Shown here: one piece after another, positions 9,443 through 20,409 of the stretch
Layout: each line of letters begins with the position of its first letter
Numbering within the stretch: the stretch's first letter is position 1
NCBI GenBank assembly: GCA_004524535.1
Contig: SDNY01000034.1
Span: 1 to 31,766, forward strand
Length of the DNA stretch: 31,766 nt
Direction of reading: 5' to 3'
DNA from: Promethearchaeota archaeon
GTDB taxonomy: Archaea > Asgardarchaeota > Lokiarchaeia > Sigyniarchaeales > SOKP01
Program-made: the position numbers and the translations under genes
The notes under the pieces: model-generated
Told to the model about the DNA's origin: nothing
Seen by the model: the letters and a program-made list of their open reading frames with translations, nothing else
Database searches by the model: none

Positions 9443-10555
9443 TTACATTAATTCTTTTTCTTTCAAAATTCGAGGTAAATCTCTCTTTAAAGCAAATGCA
9501 CTCGTGTATTTTTTCTCACCATCAATGAGAACACAGTTACTACTTATATTTAAATCTCTTGCTTCAACTGAATTTAATGGTTTTGTTTCATACTCAATAT
9601 ATTTAATATATGGGGTGAGAACTTCAAATATTCGATTCATATACTGAGACCATTCACAAGCACAAGCATTTAGGGGAACATATATATCAACTTGTAATTT
9701 TAGACTTTTATCAATTTTTCTCTCCTTTTTTATAGCTTCTACTTTTATGCTGACAACAGAATTTGCTATGTCTTTTAATTCCTCATTTGACATATTTATT
9801 TGCTTAATTGTTTCTAAGAATCTTGGATTAATAGTTAAAACATCTATGGGAAAGCTAGTTTGATCTAAAATTTTGATATCTTCAAATCCCACATTCTTCA
9901 TAGTTTTTAGATATTGTTTCTTTAACACTGCACCAGCTACACATCCGATATAGGCTTCCATTGAATTTATGATAAAATCAGGAAGTTCTTTCAATAATAC
10001 TATATCTGAAACCATTAAACGACCATTATGTTTTAAAACCCGAAACGCTTCTTGAAAAGCTCTCTCCTTACTTGGAACTAGATTGATTACGCAATTAGAA
10101 ATGATCAAATCTATAACCTTATCGGAAACTGGAAGGTTCTCAATTTCTCCTAATCTAAATTCTACATTATTAAAATTACTTTTATCTGCATTTTTTCTCG
10201 CTGCAGAGATCATCTCTGGTGTCATATCAACACCAATAACTTTTCCTGTTTTTCCAACCTTTTGAACAGCAAGGAAAGCATCAAATCCAGCTCCTGATCC
10301 CAAGTCTAAGACAATATCTCCTTCTTTTATAGAAGCTAGGGCAACAGGATTTCCACAACCAAGGCCAAGATTAGCCCCTTCAGGTACGGAATTAAGTTCC
10401 TCTTCTGTATATCCTATATTTTTACTTATATCTTTCATAATATCAGATTCAGAACTTCCACAACAAGAACTCATAGGTCCACAGCATGAGTTTCCAGATT
10501 GCACTACTTTAGCATAACCAGTTCTTACAATTTTTTTTATTTCTTCTTCATTCAT
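9443..10555 (-). CDS. arsM: Arsenite methyltransferase with an extra C-terminal thioredoxin/ArsD-like domain
   Basis: N-terminal SCCG..SCCG, GLGCGNP, LDLGSGAGFD, ISNCVINL, GCVAGA; about 90-aa tail with CACEW. Confidence 0.93.
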   Translation of the reverse strand: MNEEEIKKIVRTGYAKVVQSGNSCCGPMSSCCGSSESDIMKDISKNIGYTEEELNSVPEGANLGLGCGNPVALASIKEGDIVLDLGSGAGFDAFLAVQKVGKTGKVIGVDMTPEMISAARKNADKSNFNNVEFRLGEIENLPVSDKVIDLIISNCVINLVPSKERAFQEAFRVLKHNGRLMVSDIVLLKELPDFIINSMEAYIGCVAGAVLKKQYLKTMKNVGFEDIKILDQTSFPIDVLTINPRFLETIKQINMSNEELKDIANSVVSIKVEAIKKERKIDKSLKLQVDIYVPLNACACEWSQYMNRIFEVLTPYIKYIEYETKPLNSVEARDLNISSNCVLIDGEKKYTSAFALKRDLPRILKEKELM

Positions 10556-10725
10556 TATTTTTCACTCTCCCAAAAACCTTTTTTATTTAAATATATTCCT
10601 AAATAGACCAATGATAACATGATTGGAACTTCCCAGAAAATATTAAATTTCTTTTTATTATAAGCAAATGCTTGTTCTCCATATCTCCCATGAGATATTA
10701 TTCCAACCTTTAGATTTTCTATCAT
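10555..10725 (-). pseudogene. 56-aa deletion chimera: DUF166-like N-terminus fused in frame to the Acr3 C-terminal helix
   Basis: MIENLKVGIISHGRYGEQAF... joined to FWEVPIMLSLVYLGIYLNKKGFWESEK, which nearly matches acr3 exon 3; TAATG overlap with arsM. Confidence 0.75.
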
Positions 10726-10794
10726 TTTTGAAAATACAAATTATTATTTTAATTTTAGGCCTTAAGATATTAAAATAATGGACTAAATTTATAC

Positions 10795-10843
10795 TTATCG
10801 ATTTAGGGAGGAAAGATTAATTAAATTTATATTTATCGATTTA
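10795..10843. promoter_or_regulatory. Repeated TTATCGATTTA motif, candidate ArsR site
   Basis: Copies at 10795-10805 and 10833-10843, and again at 14502-14512 upstream of the paralogous arsR. Confidence 0.45.
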
Positions 10844-10885
10844 TATTATTTATACAGAGAATTAAGACAATTTTATTTATTTTAG

Positions 10886-11269
10886 GTGTTAATTATTAAT
10901 ATCGAGCGACAAGAAGAAATTAAAAAAATGTTAAGTTGTTGTAAAGATTATTGTAGTGGTTATTTCCAAGATTTACAAACAAAAGGCTCTGAACTCAAAA
11001 TAAAAGAGGAATTTAAGAACTTAGAGACCTTTTTCAATGCATTAGCTTCTAAGGAGCGTCTCATAATTATCGAGACTTTAAAGGATCAAGACCGCTGCGT
11101 TTGCGAATTAGAGGCTATTTTGGATAAATCTCAATCTACAATTTCTCACCACTTAAGAAAACTTGAGAAAGCTGAATTGATTTATTCTTTTAGGAAGGGG
11201 AATTATACATATTATGGGCTTATTAAAGAAAAATTAAATACTTATTTGAAATATTTAATAAAGAGATAA
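10886..11269 (+). CDS. arsR: ArsR/SmtB family regulator (2)
   Basis: N-terminal SCCKDYC, DRCVCELE, SQSTISHHLRKL. Confidence 0.92.
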   Translation: MLIINIERQEEIKKMLSCCKDYCSGYFQDLQTKGSELKIKEEFKNLETFFNALASKERLIIIETLKDQDRCVCELEAILDKSQSTISHHLRKLEKAELIYSFRKGNYTYYGLIKEKLNTYLKYLIKR

Positions 11270-11553
11270 ATACAATTAAAAATGAACTTATTCTTTAATC
11301 ATTTCCTTAAAGGAATTTAGATTTTAAATGAAGACTTTGTGATTACATTCTTAAAATTCAAGAGAAATTTATCTTTTTCATTCTATTATATGTAAAAAAC
11401 TTCATTTTAATTGGTTAGTGGAGATGAAGCTCAAAAAGCTTCAATCTTGAGAGAAACTTAGATTCCCAATCATAAATTACAAAACAAATAGACACATGAA
11501 ATATTTTAAAAATGTTATTTAGTAAGAATATAGCAAGAATCGAGCTAGGTTAA

Positions 11554-13190
11554 ATGAAAGAAATCAATAAAGATCAGCTAAAACCAGTCAATACATTAGC
11601 TTTAGAGAATTATAAAGATTTTATCAGAATGAATTTTTCAGGTCTAAGGAATCTAGAATTCATATCAACAAATTTTATTGAAAATTTACTAGACCAAATC
11701 AAAGCTATTCTAGGTGATGTACCAGATAAAAAAATTGCTGAGATACTTTATCATACATCTGATGGTTCTGAAGCTTTAGCTTTTGCTACGTTAAAACATA
11801 CGAAAAATGATAATCCAAATTCATTAATAGATGAAAATCTTTTAGATATTTGGTTTTTAAATCTTAAACGTGAGTTTCCAAGATATATTAGTACTTTTTT
11901 CAACATGATACATAATTACAAATTAATATATGCTGAAAAATGCGTTTTTGATTTAGTTGATAAATGGGATTCTTACTGCATTAAAGTGCAAAATCGGGGA
12001 CTGAATATGGAGACAAAAATGTTTGATTTTATTAAATCTGCGTTGAAAGGTATTCTTATAGAAGAAATGTCATTTATACTTTCATGTGGAATTCCTAACC
12101 ATAAAAAATTTCTTGTTCACTACAAACATTTATATCGTGCGGTATGTTCTTTATGTTCGAGAATTGAAAAATCGCTTTCATATCAGGATTTTGTCAGAGA
12201 AGTAGAACAGAGAAATGCAAAACTTGGATTTACCAAATCTGAATTTATAGATCGAATAACTAAGGAATTCAATAAACCACGAGATAAACAGCTAAAAGTT
12301 TCTGAAATTTTGTTTCCATTCATTTGTAATAAACATGGGAAATTAAAATTAGTATGGAACGTATTAAATCTGGTATTTGGTGTGCAGAATGTTATCATGA
12401 TAGAAGCAGATTAACGGTTAAGCAAATAATTGAGCGAGGGAAAAAATATAATTTTAATTTGGAAACTCCATTAAGCATAGTTAGTAAATTAAAACAACCA
12501 TCCAGAGAAGTATTAGAATGGTCTTGTATATATCATCCAAGCTTTAGATTTAAATCAAATCCCGATGATTATAGTTTAGATCTAAAATCTTGTGATATTT
12601 GTTCTGGAGGGCGAATAACGAGAGAAAGGATAATGCGTTATTTGCTTTCCAGACTATTTGGTAAAAATTTTGGTGAAAAACCAACACCATTACATACAAT
12701 ACTTCCTTTTGATGATGTTGCTCACTTATTGCCTAGTGATTATAGTACATTGAAGAGTTATAGACTTATGCATTTTGACGCATTTTGCTATATAGATAAG
12801 ATAATAGATAATAATTATGTTACTCTTAGTATCGCAGGTGGATATTGGGATCGCGAACACTCATCCTTAGAGCAATATATAGATAGATTTAGACATACAT
12901 CTCCTAGAAATGGAAGCCATCGAAATGATTATCTACATTTAAAATCGAGTGATAGATTCAAACAAGTTTTGAAGGATTACAGATTAATTGATATTTATAT
13001 TATAGTTGATCACACCTTACAACGTGATGATTTTCTAGGATCAATAATCTCTCAGTTTGAACAACAGATTAGGAAACTATTTAAATTAAAAAATTATCAT
13101 CTCACAAATATACCTCGTTGTAATTGGAGAGATTTAAAGCAAATCGACAAACTAAGACAAACTTTTGGTGACATAGTACGATTTATCTAA
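11554..13190 (+). pseudogene. Frameshifted zinc-ribbon plus VSR/PD-(D/E)XK-like nuclease gene (ORFs 11554-12414 and 12354-13190)
   Basis: A -1 shift near 12340 gives CNKHG-EIKISMERIKSGIWCAEC; second unit WSCIYHP..CDIC; C-terminal HFDAF...IAGGYWDREH. Confidence 0.55.
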
Positions 13191-13290
13191 TAACTTTTTT
13201 ATTCTCACTTTTTTAATGATTTGAGTTTAGATAATGATAAATTCACGTAATTTAGTATAGATAAAAAAGAAAAAAAAAAAATTAAAATTT

Positions 13291-14443
13291 CTACTCTGTT
13301 TTCTCTTCCCTACTCTCCCAGAATCCTTTTTTATTTAGAAATATTCCGATATAGACCAACGACAACATTATAGGAACTTCCCAGAATGACCCTTTCATAG
13401 TAAATCTATGAATCGTATAGTCCCATGGTAGTCCCTAATGCCGCGATTGATCCAACTCCATACATAGCAATTGCGACGGCAATAGCAATCTCAAAGTGGC
13501 TTGAAGATCCAATGATTATAGTAATTATTGCCTCTCGATAACTTAATTTTGTTAATTTTGTAATTATAATATTAATACTGACAACTATCGCAAATCCTAT
13601 AAGAAGTGGGATTGTAATCAGCAGCAATAAATCTGGACGCCGAACGATTATTTGCCCGTTTAAAGAGAATAATACAACCAAAGTCATTAAAAGCGCGCCG
13701 ATTGCTATTTTTGAAATCGCAGGTCTATATTTATTGTCAAACCAGTCTTCTCCTTTCGCATTTATCAAAAGTTTCTTACTTATTATCCCCAGCAATAATG
13801 GAGCTCCAATAAAAATAAACAATGAAATTAGCAAAAGAACTGGATCCAAAGGTATATTTTTTTCCAAAGTAATATTTGCGATGAATACCATGAGCATAAT
13901 TACCGGAATATATAGTACGATGATCGTCGCTGTATTTATGCTGGTTGTTATTACATTTTGTTCCTGATTCCCCTTAGCCATGTTTAGGGTCTATAAGGTA
14001 AATCCTAATATTAGATATCCCCAAACGAGAACCATGGCTGTGCAAGGACTGCTACTAAGCAGAATAATCGCAAATATTAACTGCTCATCTTCTAAAAACA
14101 AAATCGCCATTGCTATACCTATTAAAGGTGCAATTATCCAATTTGAAATTAAAGTGAGAATGATAGGTTTCGGATTTTTGCCTAATTTTTTAATTTCAGA
14201 TGCTTGAAGATTTAACATCGCGGGATACATCATAAAAAATAAGCAAATACCAATTGGTATTGAAATCCCTCTCACTTGCCATGAGTCTATTGATTCGCTT
14301 ATAGTCGGAATCACGTTAGATAGAAAGATTCCGAGAGCCATGCATAAAATAATCCAGATCGGAAGGAGTTTTTCAAAATAACCTAATCCTTTTCGCTTTT
14401 CTTCTTTATTTTCTAATTTTTCTTTATTGTTTAATTCATTCAT
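13291..14443 (-). CDS. acr3: Acr3 arsenite efflux permease, three exons (14443-14017, 13983-13417, 13385-13291), 362 aa after splicing
   Basis: MMYPAM, SNWIIAP, PCTAMVLVWGY|MAKGN, SSHFEIAIAVAIAMYG, MGLF|WEVPIML; exon lengths 427+567+95 = 1089 nt with no internal stop. Confidence 0.88.
13386..13416 (-). other. 31-nt BHB-type intron 2 in acr3
   Basis: GACU/GGUC 4-bp helix, bulges AU^A and AU^U, inner stem UUCAUAG/CUAUGAA; contains an in-frame UAG and shifts the frame. Confidence 0.82.
13984..14016 (-). other. 33-nt BHB/BHL-type intron 1 in acr3
   Basis: GGGG/CCCU 4-bp helix, bulges AU^A and AA^A, inner UCUA/UAGA and AGG/CCU, exon-exon stem AGCCAUG/CAUGGCU; in-frame UAG. Confidence 0.8.
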
Positions 14444-14469
14444 TTTTTTATTTTAGAATAATTTTAGTT

Positions 14470-14512
14470 TGAGATATTAACAAATTATCTCACATAAAAA
14501 TTTATCGATTTA
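14470..14512. promoter_or_regulatory. Candidate operator region between acr3 and arsR
   Basis: Inverted repeat TGAGATA-N9-TATCTCA plus TTATCGATTTA. Confidence 0.4.
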
Positions 14513-14578
14513 AATAAAAATTTATAAATCTGTCTTTGCATTATAATAATTAGAAGTATTTTTTAATAAGAAGATTAG

Positions 14579-14989
14579 GTGTTTATCATTAAAGTCAAGC
14601 GTGTAAATGAAATTAAAGCAATGCTATGTTGTTGTGAAGATATCACAAATACAAATGAATATTTTAAAGAATTAAAAGAATTAGGAGAAAATTTGAGAAA
14701 TAATAATCAATTAAATAGTCTCCTTGTTTTTCTTAATGCTTTAAGTAATAAAGAACGCCTCATAATATTTAGCTCTTTAAAAGAGAAAGATAGATGTGTT
14801 TGTGAATTAGAAATAATTCTAAATAAATCTCAACCTTCAATATCTCATCATTTAAGAATACTTGAGGGTGCTGGTTTAATCCGAGGATGGAAAAAAGGAA
14901 AATTTACATATTACGGAATAGAACATAAAAATTTTAAAATAAGTCAAACGGATTTTATTGAGAATTTAACTTTAGAAAAAATTGCCTAA
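14579..14989 (+). CDS. arsR: ArsR/SmtB family regulator (3)
   Basis: MLCCCED, DRCVCELE, SQPSISHHLRIL; clear paralogue of 10886-11269. Confidence 0.92.
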   Translation: MFIIKVKRVNEIKAMLCCCEDITNTNEYFKELKELGENLRNNNQLNSLLVFLNALSNKERLIIFSSLKEKDRCVCELEIILNKSQPSISHHLRILEGAGLIRGWKKGKFTYYGIEHKNFKISQTDFIENLTLEKIA

Positions 14990-15229
14990 TAATCTATATT
15001 GACCAAACTCTGGTGTATTATGATTGTAAAGAGGTAAATCTTTTGGAATTTTTATATAAGTATTGTTTTTTAATTCTTTGACAATATATATATATCTTTT
15101 CAAATTCTGACTCAATTGTTTTCACACTTGTTTTATCAGATATTATATTTTTCATTATTTATTTATGATTTTACTTTATTGGTAACCTTTGCATTAAAAC
15201 TGAAATAAAACGAGTAGAAGACAAAAAAA

Positions 15230-15649
15230 TTAAAAGGAATAGACTATAAGATCCTCAATCTTTTCAAAATGCTTTCGATTATTCGTAATGATTTCTTTAA
15301 ATTCATTTGTAAGTATTACAGCTGAAATTAGGCAATCAAAAATATCTATTTCTTGACCTTTACCTTTCAATTTCATATGTATTTTTGCCCCGAGATTAGC
15401 AGCATTTTCATTTAAGGAAAATGTTTCTAACCGGTTAATGAATTTCTTTAAATCTCCATTGAGTCTTTGGTATTCTTGCTTTGAAATTTTTTTCTTCAGA
15501 TATTTTAACTTATAAATACCAAGAAAAAGTTCAAAAATGGAAGGGCTAGTTATTCCAAATTTATCTGTCTTGAATTTATTCAACACTTCTTCAAGAGTAA
15601 CAGCACCATTTAGAATCTCAATGGCACTACTTGTATCTAAAAAAATCAT
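15230..15649 (-). CDS. vapC: PIN-domain toxin
   Basis: IFLDTS, FEL, FDCLISA, ITNNRKHF. Confidence 0.93.
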   Translation of the reverse strand: MIFLDTSSAIEILNGAVTLEEVLNKFKTDKFGITSPSIFELFLGIYKLKYLKKKISKQEYQRLNGDLKKFINRLETFSLNENAANLGAKIHMKLKGKGQEIDIFDCLISAVILTNEFKEIITNNRKHFEKIEDLIVYSF

Positions 15650-16307: not shown

Positions 16308-16676
16308 CTATTTTCTCAAATCGTTTAATTCTCTTATAAATTCTTTCAAATTTGGTTTTTCTAACTCATTGATTTTATTTTTATAATGTTTATGATGTGG
16401 GAAGGATTTTAATTCTTTATGATGTGGAGCATTATCATATCTTAAAATAGAAATCTTTTCTTTAATATAAACATAAGAATATTTTAGTAATTTACCTGAA
16501 AAATAAAATTCAAAAATTTCAACATAATCTTTTTTATCTAAAAATCCTTTTAATCTGAAATGGCCAGTGCTAGGATTATCCGTTGCAATTTTAATAGAAA
16601 TCAGTTTTAGACTTTTAAGGGAAAGTTGAGCTAACTCGTTCGAAGCGAGCTCAGCTCTCTTTAATACGCTTTTCAA
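16308..16676 (-). CDS. DUF6516/TumE-like putative toxin
   Basis: KYSY...LRYDNAPHH...FPHHKH; exact start uncertain. Confidence 0.8.
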   Translation of the reverse strand: MKSVLKRAELASNELAQLSLKSLKLISIKIATDNPSTGHFRLKGFLDKKDYVEIFEFYFSGKLLKYSYVYIKEKISILRYDNAPHHKELKSFPHHKHYKNKINELEKPNLKEFIRELNDLRK

Positions 16677-19974: not shown

Positions 19975-20409
19975 CTAAATATTATAAGGTAATGGATAAT
20001 ATCCTTTCTCAGCTTTTAACCGTCTTATAGCATCTTCTAATATATTAATAATACGCTCTTTATAGCCAATTTGATTAGGATACTCATAAGAAAACGTGCG
20101 CCAGTATGGTCTTTTATGCCCAACTTTAAATTTTACTCCTTTCATTGATGTCATATAAGAATTCGCATCTAATTTAGTAGCAATTTGGTCCGCAATGATA
20201 TACCAATGAAATTGTGTTTTGATACCTGCACCGGTGTTCATAGGAGCGCTGTGCGCTCTTGTCTTGATAGCATTAAACTTTATTTGCCATCTATCGGGTG
20301 CTTTTTTAATTTCATACCATTTACTATCAGAATAATTCCAATAATGAGAGGCCCCTATTTTCATGCCAGTATATACTTGACCATTATGTTTTTTAAGTGT
20401 ATTATACAT
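19975..20409 (-). CDS. Hypothetical protein, aromatic-rich (YTGMKIGASHYWNY)
   Basis: 144-aa ORF with GGTGA leader; partial paralogous copies nearby keep the frame. Confidence 0.8.
   Translation of the reverse strand: MYNTLKKHNGQVYTGMKIGASHYWNYSDSKWYEIKKAPDRWQIKFNAIKTRAHSAPMNTGAGIKTQFHWYIIADQIATKLDANSYMTSMKGVKFKVGHKRPYWRTFSYEYPNQIGYKERIINILEDAIRRLKAEKGYYPLPYNI

Follow-up and report, generated by a model that had tools for sequence, protein, structure and literature searches.

The window analysed here is a 31,766-nucleotide (nt) stretch of DNA that makes up one whole contig (SDNY01000034.1, designated C103) of source genome G000, a metagenome-assembled genome (MAG) of a Promethearchaeota archaeon. 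The host belongs to the Lokiarchaeia, which agrees with the initial annotation, where a probable Asgard archaeon had been proposed from the letters alone. In this window acr3, a gene for an arsenite exporter, is broken by two short inserts that each carry a stop codon. We propose that the acr3 pre-mRNA contains both inserts as mini-introns of the bulge-helix-bulge (BHB) type, members of a genome-wide class of about 30 nt in this Lokiarchaeon, and, judging from the sequence, they are probably spliced by the splicing endonuclease EndA and by RtcB. Each intron would follow one plan: a single nucleotide, a hairpin, a 4-mer complementary to an exon 4-mer that lies 2 nt upstream of the 5' site, and two final nucleotides (mostly AA or AU). 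The intron 4-mer would pair with the exon, and the central helix so formed would leave 3 nt bulged out on either strand. In each bulge a two-subunit EndA would cleave behind the second nucleotide, the three exons would be ligated by RtcB, and the resulting mRNA would encode the full 362-amino-acid (aa) Acr3 arsenite exporter. We infer both the cleavage and ligation of the acr3 pre-mRNA and enough splicing before ribosomes reach the intronic stops. On balance we also favour the wider view that Loki-type Asgard archaea carry BHB mini-introns of about 30 nt in their protein genes, including those for RNA polymerase, elongation factor 2 (EF-2), a ribosomal-protein-like product and CO dehydrogenase/acetyl-CoA synthase (CODH/ACS), and that such introns are gained often and move between the alleles of different genera.

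The interrupted acr3 gene and its junctions

All acr3 coordinates are positions in the window. The gene lies on the minus strand, 14443..13291, and reads there as three open pieces of 150, 191 and 35 aa. The Pfam model SBF matches piece 1 over model positions 2-87 and piece 2 over 85-190, and NCBIfam TIGR00832 (ACR3 arsenite efflux transporter) is covered from 1 to 128 in piece 1 and from 126 to 312 of its 327 positions in piece 2, the coordinates of both models running on across junction 1. Scored piece by piece, the TIGR00832 matches reach 125.9 and 133.8 bits, each alone under the cut-off of 282.8; an intact orthologue from G002 scores 285.2. Exon 1 (14017..14443, 427 nt, ATG at 14443) lies in the open reading frame (ORF) 14443..13991 and includes the TIGR00832 match 1-128, its end being set by the cut rule and by the alignment of relatives. 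It is followed by insert 1 (14016..13984), of 33 nt with an in-frame TAG, by exon 2 (13417..13983, 567 nt), which carries model positions 126-312, and by insert 2 (13416..13386), of 31 nt with an in-frame TAG and a +1 frame shift. Both inserts were delimited by the cut rule and the alignment, and both have a same-site copy in G079, a genome of another genus. Exon 3 (13291..13385, in ORF 13398..13291) accounts for the last 95 nt including the stop codon at 13293..13291, and its peptide is the C-terminus of 19/19 relatives. Once both inserts are excised, 1089 nt remain, which correspond to 362 codons and a single terminal stop with no further stop or frameshift. The initial annotation had described a gene in three pieces, split by inserts of these lengths that each contain an in-frame UAG, and an unbroken 362-aa frame after their removal; all of this was borne out.

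A match to acr3 was found in 36 of 40 related genomes, the source genome included, and a stop was present in none except the source, the full-length frames being 342-455 aa. The site of insert 1 is uninterrupted in all 18 of the relatives' loci that show it, and the site of insert 2 in all 19 (one contig ends before junction 1), and one conserved peptide spans each junction. The inserts therefore lie exactly between conserved residues, and their boundaries are set to within one nucleotide.

At each junction an exon 4-mer 2 nt upstream of the 5' boundary pairs with an intron 4-mer 2 nt upstream of the 3' boundary. The resulting central helix has 4/4 pairs (one G-U in each intron), there is a 3-nt bulge on each strand, and the boundary separates the second bulge nucleotide from the third. 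Exon 14022..14019 and intron 13989..13986, all on the minus strand, form the central helix GGGG:CCCU of intron 1. The bulges are AU^A at the 5' site (14018..14016) and AA^A at the 3' site (13985..13983), with ^ marking the cut, and a 4-bp inner helix joins 14015..14012 to 13993..13990, with no outer helix. The central helix of intron 2, also on the minus strand, is GACU:GGUC, from exon 13422..13419 and intron 13391..13388, with bulges AU^A (13418..13416) and AU^U (13387..13385), an inner pair of 1 bp followed by an internal loop and a 7-bp hairpin (13412..13394), and an outer helix of 3 bp (13425..13423 with 13384..13382). Both helices with their bulges had been foreseen in the initial annotation. 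Cuts after the second bulge nucleotide give the junction peptides of the relatives, with Y replacing W at junction 1, as it does in G020.

The frequency of such motifs by chance was estimated from 200,000 random segments of 31 or 33 nt from the source genome, with a freedom of one nucleotide either way and both mirror geometries allowed. A central helix occurred in 13.8% of the segments, and a central helix with the flanking pairs in 1.4-1.9% per intron, which places the chance for both acr3 introns together at about 2-4 in 10,000. The boundaries at which this geometry was assessed were fixed independently by protein alignment.

Inserts of the same class in other genes

In order to avoid circularity, the motif was ignored in a census of inserts in the source genome. 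A total of 1,852 ORFs of at least 90 aa, taken from 1,485,219 nt of the congener G008, were compared with the source genome by tblastn; 1,426 had a best match of at least 60% identity, over 367,136 aligned residues. The comparison flagged 23 inserts with a stop or a broken frame, of which 13 were accepted as clean and internal. Intron 2 of acr3 was missed, exon 3 being short, and was added by hand, which brings the total to 14 introns in 12 genes, with lengths of 30 nt (nine introns), 31 nt (two), 32, 33 and 26 nt. None of the census inserts is present in G008 wherever the two genomes are comparable. Introns of 30 nt lie in cdhA (C100:12034), a TldD-like gene (C115:18054), the EF-2 gene (C129:9460), a small GTPase gene (C134:3701), a uS10-like gene (C135:24697), an aldehyde:ferredoxin oxidoreductase-like (AOR-like) gene (C144:21932), the RNA polymerase A' gene (C17:338), an unnamed gene (C180:283) and cdhD (C8:3086). 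RNA polymerase A' has a further one of 31 nt (C17:472), a DeoC-family aldolase gene has one of 32 nt (C16:3518), a second unnamed gene one of 26 nt (C86:9545), and intron 1 of acr3, of 33 nt, was recovered at C103:14014. Host genes were labelled from the flanking peptides, with Pfam checks among the census hosts on cdhD and the aldolase. Stop-free inserts spread widely in length (15-99 nt, mode 15), while the stop-bearing ones cluster at 30 nt.

The ten inserts that were dropped are a 26-nt one on C123 that lies in a repeated peptide and has no BHB; two repeats at C135:16064 and C135:16120; 8-nt inserts on C145 and C7; one on C156 upstream of the start codon; one of 39 nt on C182 with an ambiguous position; one on C183 in a match of 52% identity; a 15-nt insert on C56; and a 15-nt, stop-bearing difference from G008 at window position 11258 (C103:11258), at the C-terminal end of the ArsR-family gene 10886..11269, which is ordinary protein-end variation and not an intron.

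Thirty positions around each of the 14 census events were then searched for the motif. A 4/4 central helix with at least four flanking pairs, in either geometry, was found for 10/14 (chance 11.7% per event, P 3e-7), and for 8/12 once the two acr3 introns are taken out; with the acr3 geometry only, the count is 9/14 (chance 6.6% per event, P 3.5e-8). For nine introns, read by eye, the junction peptide predicted by the cut rule is the G008 peptide without a gap. Four introns (26, 31, 31 and 32 nt) have lengths not divisible by 3, and for these only cuts at the BHB sites bring the frame back. The class shares its prevailing bulge letters with acr3: A[A/U/G]^A for most 5' sites and A[A/U]^N for most 3' sites. 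The reading of acr3 as a multi-intron mRNA, put forward in the initial annotation, thus gains support from at least 12 further inserts of like size and architecture in 11 other genes, as well as from G079.

The genes that carry these inserts include some that the host can hardly do without. RNA polymerase A', EF-2 and the CODH/ACS subunits are each the single best match in the source genome, which is 3.66 Mb long in 198 contigs, with 30.4% G+C, 99% estimated completeness and 4.4% estimated contamination. With stop-bearing inserts in such genes of a 99%-complete genome, the interrupted genes are therefore not all dead. EF-2 was found in 40/40 related genomes, and in five of them (the source, G001, G020, G011 and G012; loci L133, L140, L144, L145 and L146) the main copy has a 30-nt stop-bearing insert. 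The five inserts occupy four sites, after about residues 65, 63, 63, 36 and 34, which form two clusters. A 4/4 central helix in the acr3 geometry is present in 5/5, and the intron 4-mer changes along with the exon 4-mer: UCAG/CUGA, ACAG/CUGU, ACGG/CUGU, AUGG/CCAU and AUUG/CAAU. It was also observed that the EF-2 site in the source genome lies 6 nt downstream of the site in G001 and G020, after a repeated CAGAT, with the intron 4-mer altered to match; such a shift suggests either that the intron slid or that insertion recurred at a favoured target.

The reverse comparison, of 3,370 source ORFs over 346,595 aligned residues, gave one clean 30-nt insert specific to G008, so that the intron load of the two congeners is about 14-fold apart (14 versus 1). 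The G008 insert is stop-bearing and lies at about position 12065 of locus L076, on the minus strand, in the gene adjoining cdhA. By extrapolation from 14 introns in roughly a third of the coding capacity, the source genome would hold about 40.

The enzymes that the proposed splicing calls for were also looked for, and the initial annotation, which had named EndA and RtcB, was right in that the source genome encodes both. EndA is represented by two paralogues (C100:31106 and C84:30615), both 201 aa long, which score 107.9 and 70.7 bits; the best PDB matches of both are archaeal tRNA-splicing endonucleases. Paralogue 1 has its best PDB match in 3p1z_B (E 7.6e-37), among chains of crenarchaeal heterotetrameric enzymes, and it has Tyr, His and Lys at positions that we take to be a putative catalytic triad. 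Paralogue 2 is more diverged (best match 5x89_A, E 6.4e-25) and has no His at the compared position. RtcB (C101:22508) is intact, with 561 bits in a frame of 497 aa. According to one report, Asgard archaea have an (alpha-beta)2 EndA with an L1 loop, which gives a broad substrate range that includes relaxed motifs (PMC5829648).

Origin of the proposed acr3 introns and competing explanations

G079 belongs to a different genus of the same family, and its acr3 has a 33-nt insert at junction 1 and a 31-nt insert at junction 2, at the same sites as in the source. The introns of the two genomes share 30/33 bases (intron 1) and 28/31 bases (intron 2), the differences being in the loops, one bulge position and one stem position, and removal by the same rule leaves an open 352-aa frame in G079, with W at junction 1 where the source has Y. 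The two Acr3 proteins are only 68% identical (239/351). In 60-nt windows, the DNA of the two genes is 83-90% identical around each intron and about 50-65% elsewhere. Up to 8 codons from the junctions, 16/26 synonymous codons are identical, compared with 84/197 in the rest of the gene (Fisher P 0.054). Between the source and its own congeners this pattern is reversed, with 7-9/27 near the junctions and about 55% elsewhere. Although the statistics are weak, these sequence comparisons point to introns that spread laterally and took short stretches of exon with them, or to recombination between alleles; strong constraint on the intron sequence is an alternative to such spread. As for mobility of the homing type, introns of 31-33 nt are too short to encode a protein, and no recognisable endonuclease gene was seen near acr3.

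The taxonomic class was surveyed for further cases. A copy of acr3 is present in 107 of 121 genomes of this class, and the eight loci that showed stops or splits were examined; among them, inserts occur only in G079. The stops recorded in G015 and G061 are the natural stop codon, G075 and G082 show no internal stop on alignment, and the G106 match came as two overlapping pieces. In G058 (L149) and G070 (L150) a second acr3 copy has point stops, not inserts, and these second copies are probably pseudogenes. In each, an in-frame stop replaces the tryptophan codon with which the gene resumes after the intron-2 site, and one other point stop is present.

The exons of acr3 are under purifying selection. 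The ratio of nonsynonymous to synonymous substitution rates (dN/dS) is 0.05-0.12 against seven relatives, compared with 0.07-0.16 for pairs of intact genes, and dN to the outgroup G017 is 0.205 for the source acr3 and 0.178-0.214 for its congeners. The comparison of homologues suggested in the initial annotation gave no sign of neutral evolution in the exons, and inserts that, G079 apart, are absent from the relatives' loci read.

Several observations weigh against splicing as we propose it. No RNA run was found to contain window positions 12300-15100. Neither of the BHB structures drawn for acr3 is the minimum-energy fold, and in intron 1 that fold extends the central helix to 8 bp, burying the 3' site. 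The fold energies are ordinary (z -1.43 and -1.50), with 23 and 17 of 200 shuffles folding equally well. Intron 1 has no outer helix at its 3' bulge and the inner helix of intron 2 is nearly absent, and therefore both motifs are relaxed BHB motifs (HBh'/hBH-like); the strict hBHBh' form, in which an outer and an inner helix directly flank both bulges, is present in neither. Four census introns out of 14 do not pass the strict criterion: those of the AOR-like and GTPase genes have 3/4 central pairs, and two others only 3 flanking pairs. Interspecies dS exceeds 1, and the selection test accordingly rules out only an old pseudogene, not a recent inactivation; the acr3 inserts are recent or laterally acquired. 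On the structural points, the outer helices of the class are mostly 0-2 bp, and thus acr3 intron 1 with its relaxed motif is a typical member. The AOR-like intron, with 3/4 central pairs, yet has a 9-bp inner and an 8-bp outer helix.

A further adverse result came from a genome-wide scan for the motif itself. Both strands were searched for the BHB geometry with introns of 12-110 nt, a cut being required to fuse two open frames, and the 3' cut was displaced by 1-2 nt as a control. There was no bulk excess, with 20,225 ORF pairs at the true cut and 19,981-20,332 in the controls. Any signal is drowned by ordinary gene boundaries, and the BHB motif alone therefore does not identify introns. Once the length was restricted to 27-35 nt in the acr3 geometry, with 7 or more flanking pairs, there was a small excess of 100 ORF pairs against 74-84 in the controls, and filters on the bulge consensus or GC brought no improvement. 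Run from the motif, the search for split genes with BHB inserts that the initial annotation had proposed thus gave no usable excess. Among 18 motif-first matches picked by hand, five were judged to be real split genes and 13 ordinary gene boundaries. These finds include two genes outside the census, for an AMP-binding synthetase and an ABC ATPase (C74:9919 and C138:12741), with a stop-bearing or frame-breaking insert within the 26-34 nt range that G008, where comparable, lacks. Pfam models continue across two inserts, CdhD from 7-135 to 138-227 and AMP-binding from 6-192 to 222-377, whereas ABC_tran (2-136 of 137) and DeoC (32-220 of 229) end exactly at an exon end, and cdhA was left undecided. 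The cdhD gene is uninterrupted in 31/31 other genomes with a match, the closest being 95% identical (399 versus 409 aa).

Could acr3 instead be a recent pseudogene, in which mobile mini-introns landed, or recombined into a dispensable gene, and are spliced poorly or not at all? The gene is an accessory one, which also counts against splicing as proposed, its motifs are relaxed and are not minimum-energy folds, its locus is rearranged relative to that of the congeners, and acr3 pseudogenes occur in the group, as the second copies of two other genomes illustrate. We nevertheless consider this unlikely, as the 1089 nt of the gene contain no other lesion and dN/dS is as low as in intact orthologues, although the latter says little about a very recent inactivation. 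The interrupted gene is also the sole acr3 match in the source genome, the ArsM and the two ArsR genes beside it are intact, its introns share their architecture and bulge letters with those of essential genes, and G079 retains both introns in a gene that is otherwise open over 352 aa.

It is very improbable that the inserts are artefacts of assembly or binning. The window is a whole contig of a 198-contig MAG with some estimated contamination, an exact search of metagenome contigs for each acr3 intron gave 0 matches, and no contig at least 99% alike was found in four runs, only acr3 pieces of other organisms. This last result says nothing either way, but it leaves the inserts without independent DNA support, a further point on the adverse side. 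Both inserts nonetheless have same-site counterparts in G079, which was assembled independently and belongs to another genus, EF-2 genes from five separate assemblies carry inserts of this class, and each acr3 insert is unique in the source genome, where blastn-short found no other copy and only chance matches of up to 16 nt. Least credible of all is a ribosome that hops over the inserts without RNA splicing. Such programmed translational bypassing is known from gene 60 of phage T4 and from the byp elements of yeast mitochondria, and the acr3 inserts, being short, with a hairpin and a stop codon near the 5' end, may resemble bypass elements. Neither acr3 junction, however, has a matching pair of take-off and landing codons from which the conserved peptide would result, the codon in front of each insert being different from the one in front of the point of resumption. 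Across the class it is the BHB cut positions that restore the frame, and bypassing does not require the covariation of intron and exon 4-mers. Splicing of BHB introns from the acr3 pre-mRNA is the explanation that we prefer.

The arsenic locus and comparison with known systems

The acr3 gene lies in an arsenic cluster, together with genes for ArsM and two ArsR-family regulators. One regulator (14579..14989, plus strand; Pfam HTH_5, 53.7 bits) is divergent from acr3. On the other side of acr3 are an intact gene for the arsenite methyltransferase ArsM (9443..10555, minus strand; NCBIfam NF008823, 351 bits against a cut-off of 263) and a second regulator gene (10886..11269, plus strand; HTH_5, 61.3 bits). 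In the congeners arsM, acr3 and arsR are tightly packed in that order (G008 locus L005). In the source window, the order from 9443 to 14989 is arsM, the orthologous arsR at 10886..11269 (84-86% identical to the ArsR beside acr3 in the congeners), two ORFs, acr3 and the arsR at 14579..14989, which is only 54% identical to that of the congeners. The two ORFs (11554-12414 and 12354-13190) were found in the source genome only; they have no Pfam match, and neither G079 nor the congeners have a homologue of them next to acr3. This copy of acr3, with its introns, may thus be part of a module that was rearranged or imported. Just past the cluster are genes for a PIN-domain protein (15230-15649) and a TumE-family toxin (16308-16676). 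ARAGORN found no tRNA gene in the window and only 12 in the whole of the 99%-complete source genome, of which 8 contain introns; the majority of tRNA genes probably escape recognition through being so heavily interrupted.

Provided that these mRNAs are spliced, the pseudogenes or fragments that gene callers report for such genes are systematic errors, and translation coupled to transcription would have to cope with intronic stop codons. There would then be routine mRNA splicing by tRNA machinery, and a way to keep ribosomes off unspliced mRNA, in the closest prokaryotic relatives of eukaryotes, and the lineage nearest to eukaryotes would offer a place to study how introns arise and spread in protein genes. 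The mechanism of gain can be tested directly, given that two genera have near-identical acr3 introns and that the source has 14 introns over the aligned space where its congener has one.

The BHB intron of cbf5 is reportedly the subject of papers by Watanabe in 2002 and Yoshinari in 2006. It is the only archaeal mRNA BHB intron that a full-text search of openly available main texts turned up. The pre-mRNA of cbf5, for a pseudouridine synthase, is reported to have a BHB intron in Desulfurococcales and Sulfolobales (Yokobori 2009, PMC2738675). Like those of acr3, it is a tRNA-type intron in an archaeal protein gene with a patchy distribution among relatives, and its removal by a hetero-oligomeric EndA is known from experiment. 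The cbf5 host is crenarchaeal and a single RNA-modification gene is involved, whereas acr3 is an accessory resistance gene of an Asgard archaeon, with two introns from a uniform class that measures about 30 nt and extends to at least 12 genes of the source genome, and these would be spliced in the manner inferred here.

In eukaryotes, the XBP1 and HAC1 mRNAs are cut by Ire1 and ligated by RtcB or Trl1. There too a short mRNA intron is removed by an endonuclease and a tRNA ligase with no spliceosome, and its removal changes the frame, but the endonuclease and the RNA motif are different and the splicing is regulated by stress. Transposing tRNA introns of Thermoproteales are said to have been described by Fujishima in 2010. 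Near-identical short BHB introns at homologous sites of diverged genes suggest movement in both cases; in Thermoproteales the movement is among tRNA genes, whereas here it would be between alleles of one protein-coding gene from two genera, perhaps along with adjoining exon codons, for which the signal is weak.

Non-canonical tRNA introns of the HBh' and hBH forms, which are cut by (alpha-beta)2 or epsilon2 EndA (PMC5829648), follow the same motif logic, with part of the motif being exon sequence, and an enzyme of that type is encoded in the source genome, but the acr3 substrate is an mRNA with no tRNA body. A preprint reports that Asgard tRNA genes are heavily interrupted, with introns gained many times (10.64898/2026.10.13.758758). 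Its main text mentions no intron within a protein-coding gene; "protein-coding" appears there once, for neighbouring genes, and "mRNA" not at all. The kind of intron proposed for acr3 is therefore known from cbf5, and what is new is the host lineage, the presence of two introns in one accessory gene, a uniform class that reaches essential genes, and the signs of lateral spread.

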